A stretch of DNA of 64,000 bases from Rhodothermales bacterium (lineage in GTDB: Bacteria > Bacteroidota > Rhodothermia > Rhodothermales > VXPQ01): positions 1,082,844-1,146,843 of the forward strand of contig OZ220686.1 in the NCBI GenBank assembly GCA_965116435.1, written 5' to 3'. Of this stretch, positions 5,463 to 42,405 are shown piece after piece. A program made the translations under genes and the position numbers. Position 1 is the first letter of the stretch. The number at the start of each line of letters is the position of its first letter. The notes under the pieces are model-generated. The model did not search any database. It was not told where the DNA came from and saw only the letters and a program-made list of their open reading frames with translations.

Positions 5463-5981
5463 ACCCCGGGCGCAAACACGGGTTGGCCCGCCTTGCGAGC
5501 GGCTCGCTCCTCCAAGCGACGGCGCCCGTCCACATCCGAGGGAAGGGGCTGCCGTCGGATCCGTTGCCTGTGCGCTGACGAGAACGTCGTTCAGGATGTG
5601 AGGGGGGGGGGCGCAAATTGCGTCGCGGGTAGACGAGGGAATCATTGCTGCTTTCCGGTCTGGGGGTGTCTGAGGGTATCTGGTATGCATGTGTTTGCCG
5701 GTATTTGCACGCATCTTCACGTATTGGCGCGTACTTTCGATGCGTAGCGGTGGCCATCTCCCGGGACGCGCACAGGACGCGCACAAACAGCGTACTGTGC
5801 AGAAGCAACATTAGCAACATTGGGAGCGCCAATCACTGGAATTATCCAAAAACCTGCGATCCGGCGGGCGAAATATACGACAGGGGCCGCCATGTTGTCA
5901 ATCAAAAATGCAAGAATATTTTCCTTGCCGGCGCGCCCGGCGCATGCGAGACGCTGCACGTACGACGACGGCGACAGGGCG

Positions 5982-6085: not shown

Positions 6086-6811
6086 TCAGCGCGCCATCAA
6101 GTCCCGCGAACCGTCGGACTGGAGTACGTATTCGAACGTATAATACCGCGACGGAACCGATGCATCAGGAGGGTCCGGATTATCCTGGTAATAACTCAGA
6201 ATCCGCAGTTTCGCATAGCGGCCGTTCGCCGTCTTGAGTACGATGGTGCGGCCCGGAACAGGCAAAAGCAGCATGCTTTCGGCATTATAGGTATACCAGC
6301 CGTTGTCCGAGCCGGAGCAGATCGCGTAGGGCGAGCCCGGAACGGGACCGAAGGGCGTGGAAACCTCCGGGCAGGATGTGTTCTCTCCGTCGGCAATATA
6401 GCCTCCTTCCGGGGCTTCGACAACGTCGGCGAAAGGCTGCGCAAGCAGCTGCGCCGCGGCTTCGCCTGGCCCGCTTGCGCCCCCGTTGAAAATGATCGTC
6501 GTGCCTCGGAAGCCGATATCCCACGCGGTCGAAGCGGAATCGCGCTGCCGGGCGGCGGCGTCCGTCTGAGACGAGGGAATGCGTATCGAACCCGCCTCAA
6601 GATCATACAGCGTAAACAGGTTGTTGCTAATCGAGGCCCCCGTATCGGGATCGCGGCCCGAAACCGGATCCGCCGGAATATTCTCGGCTATTTGCACGTC
6701 AAGAGGAACCGGGGCGGGCTCGGGATCCGCGCTGTCGCACCCTGCGAGCAACAGGACGAACCCGCAAAGTACAGAAAGCGCAACAGGTATTTTCAGGGGG
6801 CGTGGCGTCAT
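6086..6811 (-). CDS. HmuY-family (haem-binding-like) lipoprotein
   Basis: ORF 6086-6895. The internal Met at 6811 gives MTPRPLKIPVALSVLCGFVLLLAGCDS, a lipobox. The body has HmuY-like blocks: WDIGFRGTTIIFNGGASG, NGWYTYN and TIVLKTANGRYAKLRILSYY. It lies downstream of a TonB-dependent receptor on the same strand. The start is ambiguous (6811 or 6895) because the upstream ATG lies inside a tandem repeat. Confidence 0.7.
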   Translation of the reverse strand: MTPRPLKIPVALSVLCGFVLLLAGCDSADPEPAPVPLDVQIAENIPADPVSGRDPDTGASISNNLFTLYDLEAGSIRIPSSQTDAAARQRDSASTAWDIGFRGTTIIFNGGASGPGEAAAQLLAQPFADVVEAPEGGYIADGENTSCPEVSTPFGPVPGSPYAICSGSDNGWYTYNAESMLLLPVPGRTIVLKTANGRYAKLRILSYYQDNPDPPDASVPSRYYTFEYVLQSDGSRDLMAR

Positions 6812-9278: not shown

Positions 9279-9533
9279 GGATGTACTGATCAAGTCCACT
9301 TCGATCAGGGCTTCACGTACGCGAGTAGCGTTTGTAATGATTCTATCGTTAAAATCATCGGAAAACACGGCGTGTTGCGGCGTCGGGGTCGTGAAGCGCC
9401 CTTCGGGAGGCATCAAGGAGCGCGCTGGCTGCCTCATTCCTCATTACGCGGGGCCGCCACACTACCTGCTTCGTCATTCCTTGCCAGCCCACTCCTCATT
9501 GCCTCTGATCTTCGCGGACTTAATCAGAGTGCT
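9279..9533 (+). mobile_element. MITE-like element, full copy 1
   Basis: Starts GGATGTACTGATCAAGTCCACTTCGATCAG and ends CTGATCTTCGCGGACTTAATCAGAGTGC. Roughly 85-90% identical by eye to the copies at 11407, 36500, 40406 and 45236. Confidence 0.85.
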
Positions 9534-31013: not shown

Positions 31014-31262
31014 GTGAACTGCTTCATAATTAAGATTGATGCAAAAAACCGATATTTTAGTCCGGACCATGGACAAATCTGCCAGACCATCAAGACCCAG
31101 ATGCTCTGGGGCGAGACGACCTGTCGGGTATGGCTATCCAACCGCGATTCGATGGTCCGCGTCCCTGCATCCAGGCTGCCCCCCCTGAAGGATTCAAGAA
31201 CAAGAACCGCTACCGGAAATGACGCCTCTCCTTATCTTACGGGTTACAGGAGGTACCCATGA
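31014..31262 (+). CDS. Doubtful 82-codon ORF in the helicase-pglZ spacer; its stop overlaps the pglZ ATG
   Basis: ORF-track entry. It ends ..YRRYP* with TGA overlapping the ATG of pglZ (ATGA). The segment GQICQTIKTQMLWGETTCRVWLSNRDSMVRVPASRLPPL could be a small beta-rich domain or a gene remnant. There is no independent support. Confidence 0.2.
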   Translation: MNCFIIKIDAKNRYFSPDHGQICQTIKTQMLWGETTCRVWLSNRDSMVRVPASRLPPLKDSRTRTATGNDASPYLTGYRRYP

Positions 31263-33265
31263 GTAACTGGCGCGACCAGATTCTCAGGGAGTTCACTCCC
31301 CATGTCGCCCGGCTGACCCTGGTTGCCGATCCAGACGGGCTGCTCCTGGAAGAAGGGGTTATTGGGAGCATACGCGAGCGTGGTTTTGAATTGATTCCGT
31401 TCGAGGATCATGTCGCCTTTCGCTACGCCTACGAATCCAGATTTCGCTCCCGCTGGGATCAGGGTGAGCAGACGGATTTGGTAGTCGTGCTGCGCTCTGC
31501 GGAGAGCGACCTCGGCTATCTGCCATACGATCTGCTCCAGGCAGGTCGCAAATTTTCATTCAACCTCGGGGATATCTTCCCCAGCCTGAGCTATCCAATC
31601 GTGACCGCCTTGGATCGGGGGGATCTGGATGCGCTCTACGAAGCCCAGAAGCAGCAGCACCCCGGAGTGCTGGGCGACAATGCTACAAAGGAATTCGTTC
31701 TGTGCCATGTCTTTGAGATCGATCCAGAACTCATCCGCAAGCCGTCCGATCTACTGCGGGTGCTGCTGCGCCGCCACTATCGGGAACAGCACATCCCCGC
31801 TTTGCTTGACGAGCGCTTTATTCAGATCCTGCGCCAACAGAGCGATTTTGAAGGGTGGCCCCTCGAAACGATTATCCCGGATCGAGAAGCCTTTTTCGCC
31901 TTTCTCCAGGAACGCTGGCCCATCTTCTTAAATCGGGCGGCAACCCAGGTTACCACCAGCACTCGCGAGGATGAGAAGCCCTGCGACCTTGAGTATCCCG
32001 GTCCTTCGAACTTGCCCTTCGACCATGACGACATCCGTGTCTATATCGACAACCTCTTTGTTGAAGGACTGCTTGAAGCGGTTGCCCATGATCAAGCCAA
32101 GTCGCTCTCCAGGACTTGGCTCGCCATAGGCATCCGAACGGACGAGCATGCGGACCGGGCGAGGCGCGTGGAGGGACTCCTCGATACCTTGGCGTCCGAT
32201 ATTCCGAATGAGGACACGCGGCACGAGGACTGGTTTCACTTTGCCAAAACCTGGGCGGAGCTTGTAGCGTTGGTGCTGGGTCCGAATGCGGTACTGCCGG
32301 AACCGGCGCGGCAGAAGATGGGAGCGCTTCAAGCTCAGATCGATGCCGCACTCGTGCCGTGGCTAACAAAACGCTACGCAGGATTGGTCAGCCTGCCTCC
32401 GGTTCCTCCGGTCATGCTCCATCATATTCCCCGTTTCCTCTCCCGCCATATTCACAATGGGAACCAACACAAGGTTGCGTTTATCCTGATGGACGGCCTT
32501 GGGCTGGATCAGTGGATCGTCATCCGAAAAGAAATCGCCAAACAGCGAGCCAATTACCGCTTTCGTGAGAACGCCGTGTTTGCCTGGATACCGACCATCA
32601 CGTCTGTTTCGCGCCAGGCTGCTTTTGCAGGAAAACCACCGATCTATTTCCCGAACAGCATCCATACCACCGACAAAGAACCGGCGTTGTGGACACAATT
32701 TTGGGCCGACCAAGGGCTTACACAGCAGGAAGTCGCATATGCCAAGGGACTGGGGAACGGCCCCCTGGAAAGTGTGGAGGAGATTGTTGCCCGGCCCAAG
32801 ACGCGGGTGGTCGGTCTGGTTGTCGACAAAGTGGACAAGATCATGCACGGCATGGAACTTGGCGCAAAGGGCATGCACAACCAGGTTCGCCAGTGGGCCG
32901 AGGGGCCATTCATGACGCAACTGTTTGACTTGCTTCTGGAAAACGGATTTCGTGTTTACCTGTCGTCGGATCACGGCAATATTGAAGCATCAGGTTGCGG
33001 CCGACCTGCAGAAGGAGCCGTGGCAAACCTGCGCGGAGAACGTGCTCGGATTTATTCCGATTCCTTGCTGCGAGGTCGGGTTAAGGAACGCTTCCCGGAC
33101 GCTTTGGAATGGCCTCCTATCGGGCTGCCGGAGGATTATTGGCCCCTGCTTGCTCCGCCTCGCGCCGCGTTTGTGCCCAAGACCAGAAACCTTGTCGGGC
33201 ATGGCGGCGTCGCTCTCGAAGAACTCATCGTCCCGCTTGTTCGGATTGAAAGAAGAGACACATGA
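31259..33265 (+). CDS. pglZ: PglZ alkaline-phosphatase-superfamily protein (BREX)
   Basis: 668 aa. The PglZ core reads VAFILMDGLGLDQW, FAWIPTITSVSRQAAFAG, VDKVDKIMHG and VYLSSDHGNIEA. Confidence 0.85.
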   Translation: MSNWRDQILREFTPHVARLTLVADPDGLLLEEGVIGSIRERGFELIPFEDHVAFRYAYESRFRSRWDQGEQTDLVVVLRSAESDLGYLPYDLLQAGRKFSFNLGDIFPSLSYPIVTALDRGDLDALYEAQKQQHPGVLGDNATKEFVLCHVFEIDPELIRKPSDLLRVLLRRHYREQHIPALLDERFIQILRQQSDFEGWPLETIIPDREAFFAFLQERWPIFLNRAATQVTTSTREDEKPCDLEYPGPSNLPFDHDDIRVYIDNLFVEGLLEAVAHDQAKSLSRTWLAIGIRTDEHADRARRVEGLLDTLASDIPNEDTRHEDWFHFAKTWAELVALVLGPNAVLPEPARQKMGALQAQIDAALVPWLTKRYAGLVSLPPVPPVMLHHIPRFLSRHIHNGNQHKVAFILMDGLGLDQWIVIRKEIAKQRANYRFRENAVFAWIPTITSVSRQAAFAGKPPIYFPNSIHTTDKEPALWTQFWADQGLTQQEVAYAKGLGNGPLESVEEIVARPKTRVVGLVVDKVDKIMHGMELGAKGMHNQVRQWAEGPFMTQLFDLLLENGFRVYLSSDHGNIEASGCGRPAEGAVANLRGERARIYSDSLLRGRVKERFPDALEWPPIGLPEDYWPLLAPPRAAFVPKTRNLVGHGGVALEELIVPLVRIERRDT

Positions 33266-34180: not shown

Positions 34181-35551
34181 TCACCCCCTCCCCATCCAGT
34201 ACGCCTCGATTTCTTCCAGGGTGCGGCCTTTTGTTTCTGGCATTACCTTCCAGCCAAGCCAGATGGCCGGAGAGCATAGTGCGGCGAACAGCCAGAAGGT
34301 CCCGGCGGGCGACAACGTATCCAGCAGCCACGGCACGGTCTGCCCCACCAGCGCCGTCCCGCCCCACAGCGCAAAGGTGGCGATGGACATGGCCCGGCCC
34401 CGCACCCGCGTGGGGTACATCTCCGCAAGCAACACCCAGATGACCGGTCCGAACGACGCCGCGAAGCAGGCGATGTAGATCAGAATGAAGACGAGCAGCC
34501 AGGGGCCCTCCGTCACGCCAAACCAGAACAGCCCGCCGATCACCAGCAGCGACACCACCAGCCCGGATACGCCCCCGATCAGGAGCGGCCTTCGTCCCAA
34601 ATCGTCTATTTTCCAGATGGCGACCAGGGTGAACAGCACATTCACCACGCCGATCACCACCTGTCCGCCCAGCGCATCGCCCAGTGTGAACCCGGCCTCT
34701 TCCAGAATCCTCGGCCCGTAATAAATAATGGCGTTGATGCCGCTCACCTGCGTCAGAAAACCCAGCGCCACGCCCAGCAGAATCGAAAACCGGATGCCCC
34801 GATGCCCCAGAATGCGCTTCCAGGATTCCGGCTCCTGCGCCAGCGCCGTCTCTATGTCCGCCACCTGCCCGGCGGCAGTCTCCGCATCCGCCACCTGCGC
34901 CAGAATGTTTCGGGCTTCGCCGGAGCGGCGACGGGCCACCAGCCAACGCGGGCTTTCCGGCACCATCAACAGCAAGGCAAGGAAGCACAGCGCAGGCACG
35001 GCTTCGCTGCCGAGCATGCCGCGCCACACCTCGTCCCCGGCGAAAATGCCTTCGGACACGGCGGGCGCCCTGTGCAACAACCAGGCATTCACGAAATACG
35101 AGGTCAGAATGCCGACCGTGATAGCCAACTGATACATGGCCACCATGCGGCCCCGTACGCGCGAAGGCGACACCTCGGAGATGTACAGCGGAGACAGCAT
35201 GGAAGCCACCCCCACGCCCACGCCGCCCACCAACCGGTACGCGATGAGCATGAAATGCCCGCCCGAATACGCGCACCCTATCGCGGAAAGAAAAAACAGC
35301 GCGGCGGCCAGCATCAGGACGCGCTTGCGCCCGAACCGGTCGCTCAGAAAGCCCGCCACAGAAACACCCAGAATGCACCCGATCAGCGCCGAACTGACGT
35401 ACCACCCCTCCATGACCGGGCCGAGGCCGAATTTGTCCTTGACAAACCCGATCGTGCCGGAAATCACCGCCGTATCGTAGCCAAACAGGAACCCGCCAAG
35501 CGATGCAATGAGGGCGAGGCGCCACAAATAACTGGAGGAAGAACGCGACAT
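34181..35551 (-). CDS. MFS sugar porter (XylE/GalP-like)
   Basis: Start at MSRSSSSYLWRLALIASLGGFLFGYDTAVISG (35551). Sugar-porter signatures are GRKRVLMLAA, PESPRWL and PETKGRTLEEIE. Confidence 0.9.
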   Translation of the reverse strand: MSRSSSSYLWRLALIASLGGFLFGYDTAVISGTIGFVKDKFGLGPVMEGWYVSSALIGCILGVSVAGFLSDRFGRKRVLMLAAALFFLSAIGCAYSGGHFMLIAYRLVGGVGVGVASMLSPLYISEVSPSRVRGRMVAMYQLAITVGILTSYFVNAWLLHRAPAVSEGIFAGDEVWRGMLGSEAVPALCFLALLLMVPESPRWLVARRRSGEARNILAQVADAETAAGQVADIETALAQEPESWKRILGHRGIRFSILLGVALGFLTQVSGINAIIYYGPRILEEAGFTLGDALGGQVVIGVVNVLFTLVAIWKIDDLGRRPLLIGGVSGLVVSLLVIGGLFWFGVTEGPWLLVFILIYIACFAASFGPVIWVLLAEMYPTRVRGRAMSIATFALWGGTALVGQTVPWLLDTLSPAGTFWLFAALCSPAIWLGWKVMPETKGRTLEEIEAYWMGRG

Positions 35552-35558
35552 ACTGCGG

Positions 35559-36494
35559 TTACAGAGAGGGAGACGAAGGCGACGACGCGGAGGATACCGA
35601 ACGCACCGTTTCCATAAAACGACGAAGCACCGGATCCGCATTGTCTTCCAGCCAGGCCATTCTGAGCACGAGACGGGGCGCTGGGCCGGCCAGCGGCACG
35701 AACCGCACCTCCTGCACGTCCGACCGGTTCTGCAGGGACGCCGGCGCAAACGCCACCCCCAGACCCGCCGCCGCCATACCCAGCGCTACGCCGATCCGGT
35801 TCGCCCGCTGCGCTATGCGCGGCCCGAATCCCGCCTGCCGACACACCTCCACAAGGCCGTCGAACAAGGCCGGCTCGAACGCCCGATCCACCAGAATAAA
35901 CGATTCGTCGGCCAGATCGGCCAACGCGACTTCCGACGCGGCGGCGCGCGGATGATGCGCCGGGAACGCCAGCATGATCTCGTCGCGAGCCACCGCCTCG
36001 GACGCAAATTCTTCGGGAAAAGCGCTGCCGAACGCAGCGGAAACAGTTCGCCGCCGGAGCGCATCCGGTTGTTCGTGCGTCCGCATCTCGCGCAAAGCAA
36101 TCCCGACGCGGGGATTTTGCACCTGGAACCGGCGCAGGCAACGCGGCAGGACGCCGTACATGGCGTATCCCGTAAAACCGACAACCAGGCGCCCCTCCTC
36201 TCCGCGGGCGGCTTGCTGCACTTCCTGACGGACAAGCTCCACCTGGTCCAGCATGTGGCGGGCTTTCTCTACAAACGCCGCGCCCGCCCCGGTCAACTCC
36301 ACGGCATGCCCGCTCCTGTCGAACAATTGCACCTCCAGCTCCTCCTCGAGGCGTCGGATATGCCGACTCAACGTAGGCTGGGCCAAGGCAAGGCGTTCGG
36401 CGGCCCGGCTAAAGTTTTTGTCTTCGGCGGCGGCGAGAAACGAAAGAATGTGCTGGGTATCCACGACCGGCGAAACGGACAGGGAGAGGAACAT
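35559..36494 (-). CDS. LysR-family transcriptional regulator
   Basis: The N-terminal HTH is LSFLAAAEDKNFSRAAERLALAQPTLSRHIRRLEEELEVQLFDR. A LysR substrate-binding-like C-terminal domain follows. Confidence 0.9.
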   Translation of the reverse strand: MFLSLSVSPVVDTQHILSFLAAAEDKNFSRAAERLALAQPTLSRHIRRLEEELEVQLFDRSGHAVELTGAGAAFVEKARHMLDQVELVRQEVQQAARGEEGRLVVGFTGYAMYGVLPRCLRRFQVQNPRVGIALREMRTHEQPDALRRRTVSAAFGSAFPEEFASEAVARDEIMLAFPAHHPRAAASEVALADLADESFILVDRAFEPALFDGLVEVCRQAGFGPRIAQRANRIGVALGMAAAGLGVAFAPASLQNRSDVQEVRFVPLAGPAPRLVLRMAWLEDNADPVLRRFMETVRSVSSASSPSSPSL

Positions 36495-36499
36495 GCAAG

Positions 36500-36752
36500 G
36501 GATGCACTGATCAAATCCACTTCGATCAGCGCTTCACGTACGCAAGTAGCGTTTGTAATGATTCCATCGGTAAAATCATCGGAAAACACGGCGCTTGGCG
36601 GCGTCGGGGTCGTGAAGCGCCCTTCGGGAGGCAGCGAGGAGTGTGCTGGCGGCGTCATTCCTCATTACGTGGGGCCTGCCACGCTGCTTCGTCATTCCTT
36701 GCCAGCACACCCCTCGCTGCCTCTGATCTTCGCGGACTTAATCAGTGCATCC
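36500..36752 (+). mobile_element. MITE-like element, full copy 3
   Basis: GGATGCACTGATCAAATCCACTTCGATCAG ... CTGATCTTCGCGGACTTAATCAGTGCATCC. It lies between lysR and its divergent neighbour. Confidence 0.85.
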
Positions 36753-36958
36753 CTGGAATTGCATAAAGATAGGGACTTCCATGCAATGTATGCATAGGCA
36801 AAATACAGGGTCGCAAACCGGGTGACAATTTTTTCGACAGCTCGCTTGCACAATTGAGGGGGGGGGGCTTATACTACAGTACATACGTGCGCGTGAGGCC
36901 GTATCAGGCATTGGCCTGAAGGTGCTCATGCGCTCCATTCAGACTCGGAAAATGCACC

Positions 36959-37603: not shown

Positions 37604-38419
37604 TCATGGGGTCTGCAGGAAGCACTGATCAAGTCCACTTCGATCAGCGCTTCCTTGAAGTTGATCTGCGAGGTCCTCGAAGTTTCGGGCTACGATATCG
37701 ACCGAGGCGTCCGGGACAAGGTCCGTCGTTTGGGCCGGGCCGTATTCTGTGGTTCGATAGACAAAGGCGGCGCTGAACCCCGCGGCCTGCGCCGCCAGCA
37801 GATCGGCATTGTGGGCGGCCACCATCATCACCTGTTGCGGGCGAAGGCCAAGCAACCGGGCCGCCGTCAGGTACGCCTCCGGGTCGGGCTTGTAACGATG
37901 CGCCAGTTCTGCGGACAGGATGCAATCCCAACGCAGGTCGGCCCACTTCGCCATGTTGGTCAAGAGCGCCATATTTCCATTAGAGAGGGGCGCCACGAGG
38001 AAGCGGCGGCGCAACCGCGCCAGCCCTGCCCGGGTGTCCGGCCAGGGATCGAGCCGATGCCATGCGCGGTTCAGATGATCTTTCTCGGCCTCGGCGAGCC
38101 CTTCAATCCGAAACTGGACCAGCAATTCGTCCAGAATCATCCGATGGAGCGCGTCGATGTTCAACCAGGGCAGTTCGCCCGTGCGCACGCGGTGCATGCA
38201 CGGCTCGTATCCGGCCCGCCACGCATCGGCAAATTCCTCCCAGTCCACGGTCAGCGCTTTCTGCTCGCCCAGCGCCCGCCCCTCGCGAACAATGGCGCTT
38301 CGCCAATCAACGACCGTCCCGAAAACATCGAAGGTCAGCGCTTTTATGGAGGAAAGGTTCACGGGAGAAAGATTCATAGAAAAAAGATTCACGGAGGCCT
38401 TGTGTTCATCCACGCGCAT
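37604..38419 (-). CDS. Type II (L-2-) haloacid dehalogenase, HAD superfamily
   Basis: FDVFGTVVDW provides the DxxGT nucleophile motif. Other matches are LSNGN, SAELAHRYKPDPEAY and MVAAHNADLLAAQAAG. The start ATG overlaps the upstream stop (TAATG). The last ~15 codons (..SADRSGLDQCFLQTP*) are read from the MITE-type hairpin at 37618-37653. Confidence 0.8.
   Translation of the reverse strand: MRVDEHKASVNLFSMNLSPVNLSSIKALTFDVFGTVVDWRSAIVREGRALGEQKALTVDWEEFADAWRAGYEPCMHRVRTGELPWLNIDALHRMILDELLVQFRIEGLAEAEKDHLNRAWHRLDPWPDTRAGLARLRRRFLVAPLSNGNMALLTNMAKWADLRWDCILSAELAHRYKPDPEAYLTAARLLGLRPQQVMMVAAHNADLLAAQAAGFSAAFVYRTTEYGPAQTTDLVPDASVDIVARNFEDLADQLQGSADRSGLDQCFLQTP
37618..37653 (+). repeat. Isolated copy of the MITE 5'-terminal hairpin
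   Basis: GGAAGCACTGATCAAGTCCACTTCGATCAGCGCTTC matches the first ~36 nt of the full copies. It is itself a 13-bp stem with an 11-nt loop. The loop AAGTCCACTTC gives plus orientation. Confidence 0.75.
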
Positions 38420-39273
38420 TAATCAATCCGGGCCGACCGAACCGGCTCTTCCATTTGCCGTAGCCAGTGCGCGAGGCCGTGGCCGATGACCACCATGCGG
38501 ACGACCAGCCCCGGATGGCGCACGTACCGCGCTACCATGGCCCGCGCCGCCCCCGGCATGTCGATGCGATCCGGGGAAAGGTGCGCAAGGGAGGGCGCCG
38601 CTGCTTGCGCTCGCGCCAGTACCTGCTGGATCGCGCGCTGGATCGTCCCGTCTTGCTGGCGCGGCGCGAGGCCCGCATGGATGACGGCGAGCAAGGCGGG
38701 CCAATGGGCAAGGTGTCGCCAGAGCGTAGCGAGGCCGGGTTCGTCTGGCGCGGCGCCGAAGCGATTCAGACGGTGCAGGAGGTTCCATGTATCCGCGGCC
38801 ATATCGGCTTGCGCAAGCAGAGGAGGTAAGGTCGGCCAAGGCGAGGGCGGCGGCGGAACCGGCCCGTTCGCAGGCACCCCGGAAGGGGTCGCAACAAGGC
38901 CAGAGAGCGCCATCAGGTTCAGCCCGTTCGAACGGTTATAGGCGGCGAGGATCGCCCGGATCGCCGGCAAATCCCCAGCAGAAACGCCCGCCGAATCCAG
39001 CGGGCCGAGCGCAAGGGGATCAGGCATCGGCAACGCGACGCCCTCAAGCGTCCTGCATAATGCGGCGTCAGGCTGGCCAGACGCATACATGGGCTTCGCC
39101 GCCGCCCAGACGGCGCGCAACCCCCCTTCCACACCGGCGAGCATACGCCAGATCGACGTGACCAGCGGAAGTTGCATGGTCTGACGGATGTCTGCAAAAA
39201 GCGTGGCGGTTTCGCCCGTCGCCTCGGCCTCGGCCAACGCCGACACCGGATCGTGGCGGTATTCCCCGGTCAT
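38419..39273 (-). CDS. DehI-family (group I, D- or DL-2-) haloacid dehalogenase-like protein
   Basis: Start at MTGEYRHDPVSALAEAEATGETATLFADIRQTMQLPLVTSIWRMLAGVEGGLRAVW (39273). A second half repeats the same theme (TLWRHLAHWPALLAVIHAGL), consistent with the DehI pseudo-dimeric repeat. The family call is from memory of the DehI pattern. Confidence 0.55.
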   Translation of the reverse strand: MTGEYRHDPVSALAEAEATGETATLFADIRQTMQLPLVTSIWRMLAGVEGGLRAVWAAAKPMYASGQPDAALCRTLEGVALPMPDPLALGPLDSAGVSAGDLPAIRAILAAYNRSNGLNLMALSGLVATPSGVPANGPVPPPPSPWPTLPPLLAQADMAADTWNLLHRLNRFGAAPDEPGLATLWRHLAHWPALLAVIHAGLAPRQQDGTIQRAIQQVLARAQAAAPSLAHLSPDRIDMPGAARAMVARYVRHPGLVVRMVVIGHGLAHWLRQMEEPVRSARID

Positions 39274-39489
39274 GATATCGTCCCCTTCGCGCAATCGTCC
39301 CCGTTTCCGCGCAGGCGTCTTTTCGTTCCTTCCCGCATTGCTGCATTTCATGCGCCAACCCCGGCGAAACCTGAATGTAGCAAACCCTGCGCCACGGGCA
39401 GTATACGGAAAATCGCCACGACCGAGGAAAGCGAGACGAAAAAGGGCCGTTCCGGCGCGCCCGCGACAGCAAGACAGCATCATGAGGAT

Positions 39490-39522
39490 GCGCTGATCGA
39501 AGTGGATTTGACCAGAGTACCC
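39490..39522 (-). repeat. Isolated, slightly degraded copy of the MITE 5'-terminal hairpin, inverted relative to 37618-37653
   Basis: The reverse complement CTGGTCAAATCCACTTCGATCAGCGC matches the 5' terminus at 22/23 of the core positions. The RC of the 3' terminus matches much less well. The outer end faces right. Confidence 0.65.
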
Positions 39523-39530
39523 CAAAACGA

Positions 39531-39757
39531 TCTATGCAAAAAATGAATCGAAAGAAGGGTTTCTATACAAATTTCGCATAAGTCGTACGTGAATTATGCA
39601 TAAAATGAATGGAAATATAAACTTCTATGCATTTTTCGTATAGACAGAAAAAATCCGAGCGGAAAAGTCGGGAATTTCTATAAAATTCCGGGTACAGACA
39701 CATGGATTATGCAGAAAATGAATGGAAATATAGGCTTCTATGCATTTTTTGCATAGT
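39531..39757. repeat. AT-rich region with three ~50-bp quasi-palindromic units (39531-39581, 39593-39643, 39706-39757)
   Basis: The units are TATGCAxAAAATGAA..(~20)..TTCTATGCATTTTTxGxATAG. Arms TATGCA(N)AAAATG / CATTTTT(N)GCATA are inverted. Each unit holds ATGCAT-type cores. Local GC is far below the genome level. Confidence 0.8.
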
Positions 39758-39796
39758 GAAGGATACGCTGCACAAAGCCGCTACTTCAGGTAGAGC

Positions 39797-39983
39797 GCGG
39801 CAACCGTGGTTTAGAGGGGGCAGGCGGCGCAGCGCGGCAGCCGTGATTCAGAGAGATCAGGCGGCGCCAGGCGGCAGCCGTGGTTCAGAGCGGTCAAGCG
39901 GCGCCAGGCGGCAACCGTGGTTCAGGGGGGGGCAGGCGGCGCTGCGCGGCAACCGTGATTCAGAGGGATCAGGCGACACCAGG
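39797..39983. repeat. 37-bp tandem repeat x5, no spacers
   Basis: GCGGCA(A/G)CCGTG(G/A)TT(C/T)AGAG-type units start at 39797, 39834, 39871, 39908 and 39946. Confidence 0.85.
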
Positions 39984-40174
39984 CGGGCCGCGTGCGGCGC
40001 AGGAGAAAAGGAATGAAAATCGCCGCGATGTCTGGACGCATCCCTACAATGTCGCAGCGGGACAATCCCTCAACGAAAACCGCCGCACAGCGCCAGGAAG
40101 ACACAAAAAACGCCCCGGCATCGCCGTGTTGGACGACATCGGGGCCTATTCCATATCCGTTTCCATTTTCGTAG

Positions 40175-40248
<74 letters not shown>

Positions 40249-40405: not shown

Positions 40406-40658
40406 GGATGCGCTGATTAAGTCCGCGAAGATCAGAGGCAGCGAGGGGTGCGCTGGCAAGGAATGACGAAGCAGCGTGGCAGGCCCCACGTAATGAGGAA
40501 TGACACAGCCAGCGCGCTCCTCGATGCCTCCCGAAGAGCGCTTCACGACACCGACGACGTCAAGCACCGTGTTTTCCGATGATTTTAACGATGAAATCAT
40601 TACAAACCCCACTCGCGTACGTGAAGCACTGATCGAAGTGGATTTGATCAGTGCATCC
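40406..40658 (-). mobile_element. MITE-like element, full copy 4 (inverted)
   Basis: Flanked by TAAA (40402-40405) and TAAA (40659-40662). Its last base plus the duplicated TA form the thiD stop codon (TAG, 40658-40660). Confidence 0.85.
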
Positions 40659-41437
40659 TAAAAATGATGCACGGGGCCGTGGCCTTTTCCGAGGGCCGGG
40701 GCGCGGCGGATTGCGGACGTTACATACTGCTTGGCCCGGGCCACGGATTCCCTGAGGGAATGTCCGCACGCCAGGTTCGCCGTGATTGCGGACGCATACG
40801 TGCAGCCTGTTCCGTGCGTATGCTTCGTGACGATGCGGGGCGCCCGAAACGTATGCATCCGCTGGCCGTCGTACAGCACGTCCACCGCGTCGCCGCCCGC
40901 CTCGTCCACATGCCCCCCCTTGACGAGCACAGCCTCCGGCCCCATAGCATGGATAGCAGCGGCGGCTTCCCGCTGTCCCTCCTCTGAATCCACATCGAAC
41001 CCGGCAAGGCGGCGGGCTTCATGGGCATTCGGCGTGACCAGCGAAGCCAGCGGCAGCAGCCGTTCGCAAAGCGTTTTCACCGCCTCGTCGCGCAACAGGG
41101 GAAATCCGCCCTTGGAAATCATGACCGGATCGACCACAACCGGAGATATCTGGCGCTCCCGGAGTTTTTCCGCCACGATTTCAATGATCGCCGAGGAAGA
41201 AAGCATACCCGTCTTCGTAGCGCGTACGTCGAAATCGTCGTAGACCGCATCCATTTGCCGGACTATCAGGTCCGGGGACAACTCGAAGGCGTCCAGCACG
41301 GCTTGCGTGTTTTGCGCCGTGACCGCCGTCACGACGCTCGTCGCGAACACGCCGTGGGCTTGCATGGTTTTGATGTCGGCCTGTATGCCGGCGCCGCCGC
41401 CGGAGTCGCTGCCTGCGATCGTAAGGGCTACGTTCAT
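40658..41437 (-). CDS. thiD: Hydroxymethylpyrimidine/phosphomethylpyrimidine kinase
   Basis: Start at [24 protein letters not shown] (41437, ATGA overlap with the thiE stop). Other matches are [21 protein letters not shown] and [12 protein letters not shown]. Confidence 0.9.
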
Positions 41438-42405
41438 GAATCTTCCTCGAAATATGCGCGCAATGCGTCGAAATACTTGTGCGCCGCTTCTCCGGGGCGG
41501 TCGGCCATCATAATGCCGGACAGCACCGCAACGCCGTAACTCCCTGCGTCCAGGCACAGCGCTACCCGTTCCGGGGTCACGCCGCCCAGCGCATAGACGG
41601 GAACGCGGCCCTGAACATACTGCACAAAATCGCGCAGCGCATCAATGCCTGCGCCGGCGTACCCGGGCTTGCCCTGCGGATTGAAAACGGGGCTGAAGAA
41701 AAGGTATTGAGGGCAATGGACCTCGCTCTCTCGAGGGGTATTCCCTATTACGCGGGGGTTATTCCCCAATGCACCAGGATTGGTCCCCAAAGTACGAGGA
41801 TTATTCCCCAATGCACGGGGGTTATTCCCCAATGCACGAGGATTAGTCCCCAAAGTACGAGGGTTATTCCCCAATGCACGAGGATTGATCCCTGCTGCGC
41901 TGTCCAGACGACGATTCGGGGGATCTCCTTCTATCGCGGCCCGGGCTTCTTCGGGATTGTGCGCCGACCTGCCATAGGGTTGCCGGGGGCCGTGCGAGAA
42001 CCCTGGCGCCGGATCGCGCGCACCCGCGTGATACCCGCACTGCAAGGCGTCGGCCACCTCCGGGCGCCCGTTGACAGAAAGCAATGCCGACGGGGCCGCG
42101 TAGCGCAAGCGCTTCGTCAGGCGAGCGGCGCATTCCTCAAACAACGCCTCGGGCGCTGCGCGATCCCGCAAATGCACCCACAATGCGCGTTCCTGGCCTT
42201 GCACGCCCTGCGGGTCTCGACGGTCCTGCGCGCTCCGCCTGCCGCCGGACGAGTTCGCCGCGGCGTCCACGATCCGGTCGGCGCATTTGGGATCGGTAAA
42301 ACGGTCCCCGATCAGGATGAGCCGGGGCAACCTCCACGAGGACGCACCTCCGGTGCGGCGCTTTTCCGATGCCTCCTGCGGGTTATCCACCGATGCCCCC
42401 TCCAT
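41434..42405 (-). CDS. thiE: Thiamine-phosphate synthase with a ~60-aa repeat-containing insertion
   Basis: ThiE blocks occur in order: [49 protein letters not shown], then after the insertion [24 protein letters not shown] and GVAVLSGIM. The start codon is uncertain. Confidence 0.7.
41737..41904. repeat. 21-bp in-frame tandem repeat x ~8 inside thiE (heptad NPRALGN / NPRTLGT)
   Basis: GTTATTCCCCAATGCACGAGG / ATTAGTCCCCAAAGTACGAGG units alternate with exact 21-bp period. On the minus strand they read ..[55 protein letters not shown].. Confidence 0.9.

Follow-up and report, generated by a model that had tools for sequence, protein, structure and literature searches.

What is the role of the repeat-bearing, AT-rich island at positions 39531-39757 of a 64,000-nt stretch (hereafter, the window) of contig OZ220686.1 from a Rhodothermales bacterium? 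The G+C content is 0.37 at 39500-39799 and 0.60-0.69 on either flank. The island occupies an intergenic stretch of ~900 bp, bounded by tRNA-Arg(ACG) and by a minus-strand gene that starts at 39273 and encodes a DehI-like dehalogenase. An original prediction had described three ~50-bp quasi-palindromic units, each also holding a 15-codon mini open reading frame (mini-ORF), and had preferred palindromic protein-binding sites to translated peptides. We find that the island is probably a phased six-box candidate operator array, whose regulator would be dimeric or tetrameric and is most likely the LysR-type protein encoded 3 kb away. Judged from its conservation, the array is a putative cis-regulatory element of a known kind, with a new motif and an unusual multi-copy, variable-number layout.

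The island consists of six palindromic boxes

A repeat search recovered a three-copy direct-repeat family (39525-39581, 39587-39643, and 39700-39756; 68-88% identity to the reference copy), and no further copies of the 50-bp units were found within the 64-kb window. The AT-rich island and the three repeats were borne out at the coordinates given for them, as was the distance of ~420 bp to tRNA-Arg, whose 3' end lies 417 bp from the last unit. The repeats thus stood as described, but their parse as three quasi-palindromes of ~50 bp did not. On the minus strand, in the direction in which the downstream DehI-like gene is read, each unit comprises two palindromes of 19-23 bp, YTATGCA-N5-TGCATAR, with their centers 31 bp apart. 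The extended box consensus is ttCTATGCA-w5-TGCATAGaa, and a pair of boxes spans ~54 bp, corresponding to one of the 50-bp units.

The window array therefore contains six boxes arranged as three pairs, four of the boxes being in continuous 31-bp phase, with a single 82-bp gap between S2 and S3. A search for TATGCA-N5-TGCATA with up to two mismatches returned eight sites in the window against 0.84 expected, and seven of the eight fell in two intergenic regions, upstream of the DehI-like gene and of the LysR gene. The features of the array, with position weight matrix (PWM) scores, are listed below.

39736..39758, minus strand: box S1 (CACTATGCAAAAAATGCATAGAA), distal box of pair 1; no mismatches to TATGCA-N5-TGCATA; 35.1 bits; the best palindrome in the window
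39705..39727, minus strand: box S2 (TTCCATTCATTTTCTGCATAATC), degenerate proximal box of pair 1, 31 bp from S1; 23.5 bits; its two mismatches both fall in the left half-site
39646..39704: spacer without a box, where the 31-bp phase is interrupted; holds a small perfect inverted repeat (GGAATTT-CTATA-AAATTCC)
39623..39645, minus strand: box S3 (GTCTATACGAAAAATGCATAGAA), distal box of pair 2; 29.1 bits
39592..39614, minus strand: box S4 (TTCCATTCATTTTATGCATAATT), proximal box of pair 2, 31 bp from S3; 27.7 bits
39561..39583, minus strand: box S5 (ACTTATGCGAAATTTGTATAGAA), distal box of pair 3, 31 bp from S4; 28.5 bits
39530..39552, minus strand: box S6 (TTCGATTCATTTTTTGCATAGAT), promoter-proximal box of the whole array; 27.8 bits; followed by a T-run (cgTTTTgggg)

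Within each window pair, the upstream box was the better palindrome and the downstream box the weaker one. Pairs 1 and 2 were 88% identical, spacers included, a likeness that indicates a probable recent tandem duplication. In a pairwise alignment with L058, the 95% relative, a segment of 113 bp (the spacer, S3, and most of S4) was extra in the window and absent from L058. The spacer at 39646-39704 resembles a degenerate segment (CTCTATTTTTACCGGGG) of another relative, L062.

The boxes are conserved at two promoters in related genomes

Seven related genomic contexts were retrieved through homologues of the DehI-like and LysR proteins. The closest relatives were metagenome-assembled contigs of Bacteroidota, one cluster being named 'Bacteroidetes bacterium SB0662_bin_6', and the syntenic contigs carried genes with type IX secretion system (T9SS) sorting domains. 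The host, an uncultivated lineage that is probably associated with sponges, thus appears to belong to Bacteroidota and not to Proteobacteria. Five contexts, the window included, had arrays of 4, 5, 6, or 8 boxes upstream of the DehI-like gene, and the spacing of neighboring boxes was exactly 31 bp nearly throughout. The arrays in the relatives were as follows.

L058: DehI homologue of 95% identity; four boxes, all spaced by 31 bp
L062: DehI homologue of 80% identity; five boxes, spaced by 51, 31, 41, and 31 bp
L065: DehI homologue of 80% identity; four boxes, all spaced by 31 bp
L070: DehI homologue of 72% identity; eight boxes, seven of them perfect, all spaced by 31 bp

In L070, a T9SS cargo gene replaces the tRNA/thi neighborhood, and the array is still found upstream of the DehI homologue. 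Since the array is kept where the tRNA is no longer adjacent, it belongs to the DehI-like gene and not to the tRNA.

The second promoter carrying the boxes is that of the LysR gene itself. A two-box pair lies directly upstream of LysR in all seven relatives that include the gene (L059, L062, L063, L064, L065, L070, and L071). The two boxes are again 31 bp apart, the proximal one being centered 30-54 bp ahead of the conserved GTG GAY ACC CAG start; an intact pair ends ~21 nt before that start. Of the two boxes, the proximal one is a perfect or near-perfect palindrome (TTTATGCA-N5-TGCATAG) and the distal one is degenerate (CTATAGA-N5-TGCATAA). In the window, the proximal box is interrupted by a miniature inverted-repeat transposable element (MITE)-like insertion. 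The original prediction had noted a similar motif at 36762-36800 beside the LysR gene and had suspected a link to the array. The motif proved real and homologous, being made up of the distal box and the left half of the proximal one, and the suspected link gained comparative support. The features on this side are listed below.

36777..36799, minus strand: distal LysR-promoter box (GCCTATGCATACATTGCATGGAA); one mismatch; 22.7 bits; orthologous to the distal box of the LysR pair in every relative
36757..36769, minus strand: left half of the proximal LysR-promoter box (CTTTATGCAATTC), identified from an alignment of LysR upstream regions from seven loci
36500..36752: MITE-like element of 253 bp, bounded by terminal inverted repeats, that interrupts the proximal LysR box
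36488..36498, minus strand: right half of the split proximal box (TTGCATGTTCC), identified by comparing the window and L058 with intact boxes (CTTTATGCAATTCTTGCATAGTT)
35559..36464, minus strand: LysR-type regulator gene, 301 aa from GTG GAT ACC CAG (start set by alignment with relatives); Pfam HTH_1 and LysR_substrate
34181-35554: major facilitator superfamily (MFS) sugar-porter gene, after the LysR gene

The insertion is common to the window and L058 and is not found in L059, L062-L065, or L070. Further afield, LysR homologues of 50% identity (L067 and L069), which lie in another gene context with a divergent SnoaL gene, have TGATGCG-N5-YGCATCA 12-13 nt before their ATG. By hand count, L067 has a TGCAT half-site 31 bp further upstream, and L069 has the same upstream sequence.

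A PWM scan of ~160 kb, comprising the window and nine related loci, gave 46 hits of at least 22 bits, all at DehI or LysR promoters; the next best hit scored 17 bits. The conservation across related genomes that had been proposed as a check on the units was found, with the boxes kept at the same two promoters.

Several minor sites deserve mention here. L063, which has no array, carries a weak sequence resembling a box (ACTTCTGTAAAAAATGTATAAAA, 17 bits) at 6422-6444, 580 bp upstream of its DehI homologue; it may be what is left of a decayed site. In L059 (~5495-5640; also in L060 and L061), an 11-bp tandem repeat (CCATTTCTATA/CCATTTCTGCA) of ~12 copies between thiD and tRNA-Arg resembles the operator half-site TTTCTATGCA; the L059 lineage is without the DehI box array. 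A scan of GTDB representative genomes for TATGCANAAAATGAATNGAAA gave 57 hits, nearly all in unrelated AT-rich genomes. Only one genome of moderately high G+C content contained the half-unit pattern; this hit was intergenic, at 1905-1925 of a Bombella pollinis locus (L004; TTATGCAAAAAATGAATGGAAA), and is probably a chance match unrelated to the lineage of the window. We rejected the link to Acetobacteraceae that it might imply, the true relatives being Bacteroidota metagenome-assembled genomes.

Conservation follows the half-sites and not a stem

We next consider what is conserved within a box. In an alignment of 29 boxes, A2, T3, G13, A15, and T16 were invariant and the 5-bp center was 95% A/T, while several spacer positions carried ~0 bits. 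The same pattern of near-invariant half-sites and diverged spacers held within arrays and among lineages sharing 72-80% protein identity. The 6-bp cores of 39 boxes showed 31 deviations, every one of which broke the dyad; none (0/31) was compensated. Because the core deviations are uncompensated, the conservation pattern is that expected of half-site recognition by a dimeric protein, and not of a selected stem or cruciform.

These data bear on whether the units might act through nucleic-acid structure, as cruciform DNA, RNA hairpins, a small RNA, or a terminator array. As single-stranded DNA, a perfect box does fold, giving a hairpin of 7 bp (-6.2 kcal/mol, z=-5.4), and a 50-nt hairpin forms from unit 3 (-10.3 kcal/mol, z=-4.1). 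Unit 3 was, however, the only one of the three units that folded better than shuffled sequences, units 1 and 2 lying inside the shuffle range (z=-1.1 and -1.4), and degenerate boxes did not fold (0 kcal/mol as single-stranded DNA). An Rfam search matched only the tRNA and gave no family for the array, and a scan of the region found no terminator-like sites. Together with the uncompensated deviations, this makes a structural role very improbable, and the cruciform alternative raised in the original prediction was not upheld.

The mini-ORFs are by-products of box sequence and spacing

The mini-ORFs were present on both strands exactly as quoted in the original prediction: the 15-codon frames on the plus strand (MQKMNRKKGFYTNFA, MHKMNGNINFYAFFV, and MQKMNGNIGFYAFFA, each followed by a stop codon) and the frame on the minus strand (MQKMHRSLYFHSFSA, likewise) were all reproduced. 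Their origin is simple. The ATG sits in tATGca and the TAG or TAA in tgcaTAG/A, and the 31-bp spacing puts them 45 nt apart. Because of this sequence and spacing, every adjacent pair of boxes yields a 15-codon frame on both strands, and in four-box arrays three overlapping registers are all open on both strands.

Translated 15-residue micropeptides of the form M-Q/H-K-M-...-F-Y-A-x-F-A, for instance leader peptides or small toxins, could be argued from the start, length, and stop, which are kept in all three window copies and in most pairs of the relatives. The same regularity follows automatically from any two boxes 31 bp apart, in overlapping registers and on both strands. The conserved residues are only those encoded by half-sites, and the middle five or six residues are free (NRKKG, NGNIN, HRNTD, and others), so that neither conservation of the peptide beyond the DNA motif nor restriction to a single strand or register was found. 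At the DNA level, conservation is dyad-symmetric. The LysR-promoter pairs, moreover, keep their boxes but have no forward ATG, and in L059, L063, and L064 the frame is also stopped after two codons. Translation of the units is thus extremely unlikely, and the mini-ORFs are by-products of the boxes. The earlier preference for palindromic binding sites over mini-ORFs is supported by the comparison of related loci. The case also calls for caution in small-ORF discovery, as a palindromic operator containing ATG and TAG/TAA and repeated every 31 bp mimics 'conserved' 15-codon ORFs on both strands.

The box geometry points to a LysR-type regulator

LysR-type transcriptional regulator (LTTR) boxes are defined by T-N11-A, and the BenM box is ATAC-N7-GTAT (PMC11495319). 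LTTRs bind a high-affinity site near -65 together with lower-affinity sites near -35/-10, and they autoregulate (PMC4730206; PMC11495319). The two binding sites used by AlsR and CrgA exceed the classical box in length, and these proteins assemble on DNA as octamers or larger oligomers (PMC11495319).

The island shares these properties in three respects. The core ATGC-N7-GCAT (ATGCA-N5-TGCAT) has the T-N11-A geometry of an interrupted dyad with a 13-15 bp core; the dyad is 15 bp, and the T and A 11 nt apart were invariant in 29/29 boxes. A site of high symmetry is paired with one of lower symmetry in a tetramer-sized stretch, one box being degenerate in one half-site in the window pairs and in every LysR promoter; in L070 and L065, both boxes of a pair can be near-perfect. 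Finally, an LTTR gene is linked and has a site in its own promoter region in all seven relatives, this site being split by the MITE in the window and L058. All strong PWM hits were at the LysR promoter or the adjacent dehalogenase promoter, and no other regulator gene was consistently linked across loci. Because the boxes are linked to the LysR gene and have the T-N11-A geometry, the neighboring LysR is most likely the binder.

The regulator itself fits this family. Its nearest solved structure is ItcR (7w06), followed by BenM, CbnR, and CatM among the closest, and the winged helix-turn-helix regions of its clade are well conserved in the alignment. Its best NCBIfam match was AlsR (NF045775) at 223.7 bits, under the cut-off of 430, and an AlsR equivalog identity was accordingly rejected. 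When metagenomes were scanned with the LysR protein, one relative, of 27% identity, was found among the matches listed.

Compared with BenM/CatM/CbnR-type operators, the boxes have the same 15-bp interrupted dyad with T-N11-A, ATGC-N7-GCAT differing from ATAC-N7-GTAT at one position per half-site. The pairing of a symmetric and a less symmetric box within ~54 bp, the linkage to an LTTR, and the overlap of one box with the promoter region of the regulator are also alike. In contrast to those operators, the pair is here repeated two to four times in strict 31-bp phase and lineage-variable number, the box extends to 19-23 bp, and the LTTR is not divergent from the dehalogenase operon but heads its own lysR-MFS operon. 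As for octameric LTTRs such as AlsR and CrgA, AlsR is the best family match and multiple longer sites could accommodate several phased boxes, but the match is far under the 430-bit cut-off and the sequence of the box differs. The AlsR box is TAAT-N11-ATTA.

We propose the following mechanism. A spacing of 31 bp, three helical turns, would place paired boxes on the same face of the DNA, and each pair would offer a high- and a low-affinity site to one LTTR tetramer. The regulator would occupy the array, and its response to a ligand, presumably a 2-haloacid or its product, would control the DehI-like/HAD (haloacid dehalogenase) operon. In 10 of 11 cases, covering both DehI arrays and LysR pairs, the promoter-proximal box is followed by a T-run of 3-6 residues. 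Because this T-run is shared by both kinds of promoter, the last pair and its flank suggest a duplicated promoter-operator module, in which the core promoter would lie just downstream of the last box and the last pair near -65 and -35. The leader of the DehI mRNA would then be long and variable, the last box center and the ATG being 108-278 nt apart. The same regulator may control its own lysR-MFS operon through a single box pair, and in the window and L058 this putative autoregulatory box is split by the 253-bp MITE. The array itself probably grew by tandem duplication of a 62-bp two-box module, giving 0, 4, 5, 6, or 8 boxes among lineages.

Several observations weigh against this proposal. 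The link to this particular LysR comes from genetic linkage and box geometry, and arrays of four to eight boxes are not a classical LTTR layout. The distance from the last box center to the DehI start codon is 108-278 bp and differs among lineages, so that the classical geometry of LTTR activation would need a long, variable 5' leader. The better palindrome of the LysR pair is the proximal one, the opposite of the order in the window DehI array. L059, L063, and L064 have the DehI-like gene but no array, which makes the array dispensable. A LysR homologue of 43% identity (L072) is without a comparable box, and the motif therefore seems confined to the closer LysR clade. A scan of the region for sigma-70 promoters and terminators gave nothing above chance, although the scan does not cover the promoter rules of the host, which is probably a Bacteroidota lineage. 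The MFS gene downstream of LysR, finally, is of the sugar-porter type, leaving a haloacid role for the whole cluster uncertain.

A more specific possibility, which we put forward tentatively and consider on the unlikely side, is that the array is a copy-number-variable operator (0, 4, 5, 6, or 8 boxes). Several LysR tetramers or octamers would come together on it in a larger complex along one DNA face, and box number would tune the cooperativity, threshold, or strength of dehalogenase induction, or buffer free LysR as a decoy. If true, this would represent an evolvable 'operator VNTR' (variable-number tandem repeat) in uncultivated, sponge-associated Bacteroidota. The analysis would in any case provide a concrete candidate operator motif and a two-promoter candidate regulon under a LysR-type protein that would control dehalogenase genes. 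The promoters with 0 to 8 phased boxes, together with the MITE-split box, would form a natural experiment on operator multiplicity and disruption. The current understanding of gene regulation is left unchanged.

Alternative explanations

The boxes might be genuine operators for another protein, such as an Lrp/AsnC-type or other oligomeric, DNA-wrapping regulator, of which the LysR gene would be merely one target. Lrp/AsnC-family arrays, as at pap and ilvIH, have several dyad sites about three helical turns apart on one DNA face, with A/T-rich centers. The strict 31-bp phasing over up to eight boxes recalls such wrapped multi-dimer complexes, and arrays of this length are atypical for LTTRs. 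On the other hand, strong boxes occur only at the LysR and adjacent dehalogenase promoters in the ~160 kb scanned, their core has LTTR geometry, and they track the LysR gene; no Lrp-family gene is linked, nor is any other regulator gene consistently so. In distant LysR homologues with another gene context, too, a palindrome of similar sequence precedes the start codon at the corresponding position. A binder other than the neighboring LysR is therefore unlikely. Alternatively, the array upstream of the DehI-like gene may be a neutral or decoy minisatellite, in which a LysR operator pair was copied there and expanded by replication slippage; such an array might still be bound by the regulator but would play no part in controlling the dehalogenase genes. 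Box number does vary among close relatives (0, 4, 5, 6, and 8), the window has gained one pair relative to its 95% relative L058, and the array lies far from the DehI start, at a distance that varies; in the same intergenic region an unrelated 37-bp repeat expanded from one to five copies. Neutral decay would not be expected to leave near-invariant half-sites with diverged spacers (~0 bits), however, and position and orientation relative to the DehI-like gene are kept in five contexts, even after loss of the tRNA neighborhood. The T-run after the last box is, in addition, common to the LysR promoter. We regard a purely neutral or decoy array as quite improbable.

An AT-rich island of tandem repeats by the 3' end of a tRNA gene also invites comparison with replication-origin iterons, a partition centromere, or integrase arm sites of a tRNA-Arg island. 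In the plasmid centromere sopC of F, 43-bp repeats stand in tandem and a dimeric protein binds the inverted repeat within each; sopC resembles the present array in that both are tandem series whose members bear a short palindrome. It differs in that the array here is chromosomal and promoter-associated: the thiOSG-sulfatase-thiED-tRNA-DehI-HAD-LysR-MFS synteny is chromosomal and conserved among relatives, the surroundings hold no rep, par, or integrase genes, and the intergenic region had no BLAST match among plasmids. The iteron-like alternative of the original prediction fails on the same grounds. tRNA-linked attachment or arm sites were likewise rejected, there being no integrase and the L070 array following the DehI-like gene without an adjacent tRNA. 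As the same box also occurs in the LysR promoter, we find this group of explanations scarcely credible, and a LysR-type operator array remains the favored reading.

Presumed target genes and genomic surroundings

The genes presumed to be regulated by the array, and two neighboring features, are listed below.

38419..39273, minus strand: gene for the DehI-like protein (284 aa), presumably the target of regulation; its ATG, at 39273, is 268 bp away from the S6 center
37604..38419, minus strand: type II haloacid dehalogenase (HAD) gene; TIGR01428 at 167 bits against a cut-off of 125; Pfam Hydrolase; a maximal ORF whose true start is probably internal
39486..39521: repetitive extragenic palindromic (REP)-like hairpin of the GGTCAAATCCACTTCGATCAG type, a dispersed repeat that separates the array from the DehI-like gene and does not belong to the operator
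40174-40248, minus strand: tRNA-Arg(ACG)

The DehI-like protein itself had no direct Pfam or NCBIfam hit. Its identity as a distant homologue of DehI-type haloacid dehalogenases follows from its match to DehI in PDB 3bjx (E=3.3e-8) and from its homologues, which match Pfam PF10778. Past the DehI-like gene, the order is HAD, a divergent lipoprotein-like gene, LysR, and the MFS sugar porter. A literature search on LysR control of DehI-type dehalogenases returned nothing relevant.

The REP-like hairpin at 39486-39521 is the 'right hairpin' beside which the original prediction had placed the units. This hairpin occurs in seven copies in the window against 0 expected, and L058 has one too. Solo copies lie at 9287, 11630, 37626, 39493, and 45244, and the 37-nt terminal inverted repeats of the MITE are the same dispersed hairpin (GCACTGATCAAATCCACTTCGATCAGCGC). 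A second MITE copy, inverted and 93% identical, is found at 40406-40658, directly after the thiD stop codon, and the two copies flank the dehalogenase/LysR block.

Other repeats were seen around the tRNA gene. Directly 3' of tRNA-Arg, a terminator-like hairpin with a T-run (GGCCCCGATGTCG...CGGCGATGCCGGGGCGTTTTTT) lies at 40105-40150 on the minus strand; it is kept in L062, is missing from L058, and was not flagged by the simple terminator scan. This terminator is separated from the box array by a GC-rich tandem repeat with a 37-bp period (39794-39986), which has 5.2 copies in the window and only one in L058. Within the thiE-like ORF 41434-42405, an in-frame 21-bp tandem repeat of ~8 copies (41732-41899) encodes NPRALGN-like heptads. 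With this insertion, the ThiE-like protein (TMP-TENI domain) reaches 323 aa, compared with 246-266 aa in most relatives and 322 aa in L058.

Defense-type genes were abundant nearby (31259-33265 in the window, and in L058, L059, L060, L065, and L070) and varied by lineage around the conserved LysR-MFS block. They included PglZ in L058, AbiEi/AbiEii in L059 and L060, and a DNA methylase with HATPase_c_3 in L065 and L070.

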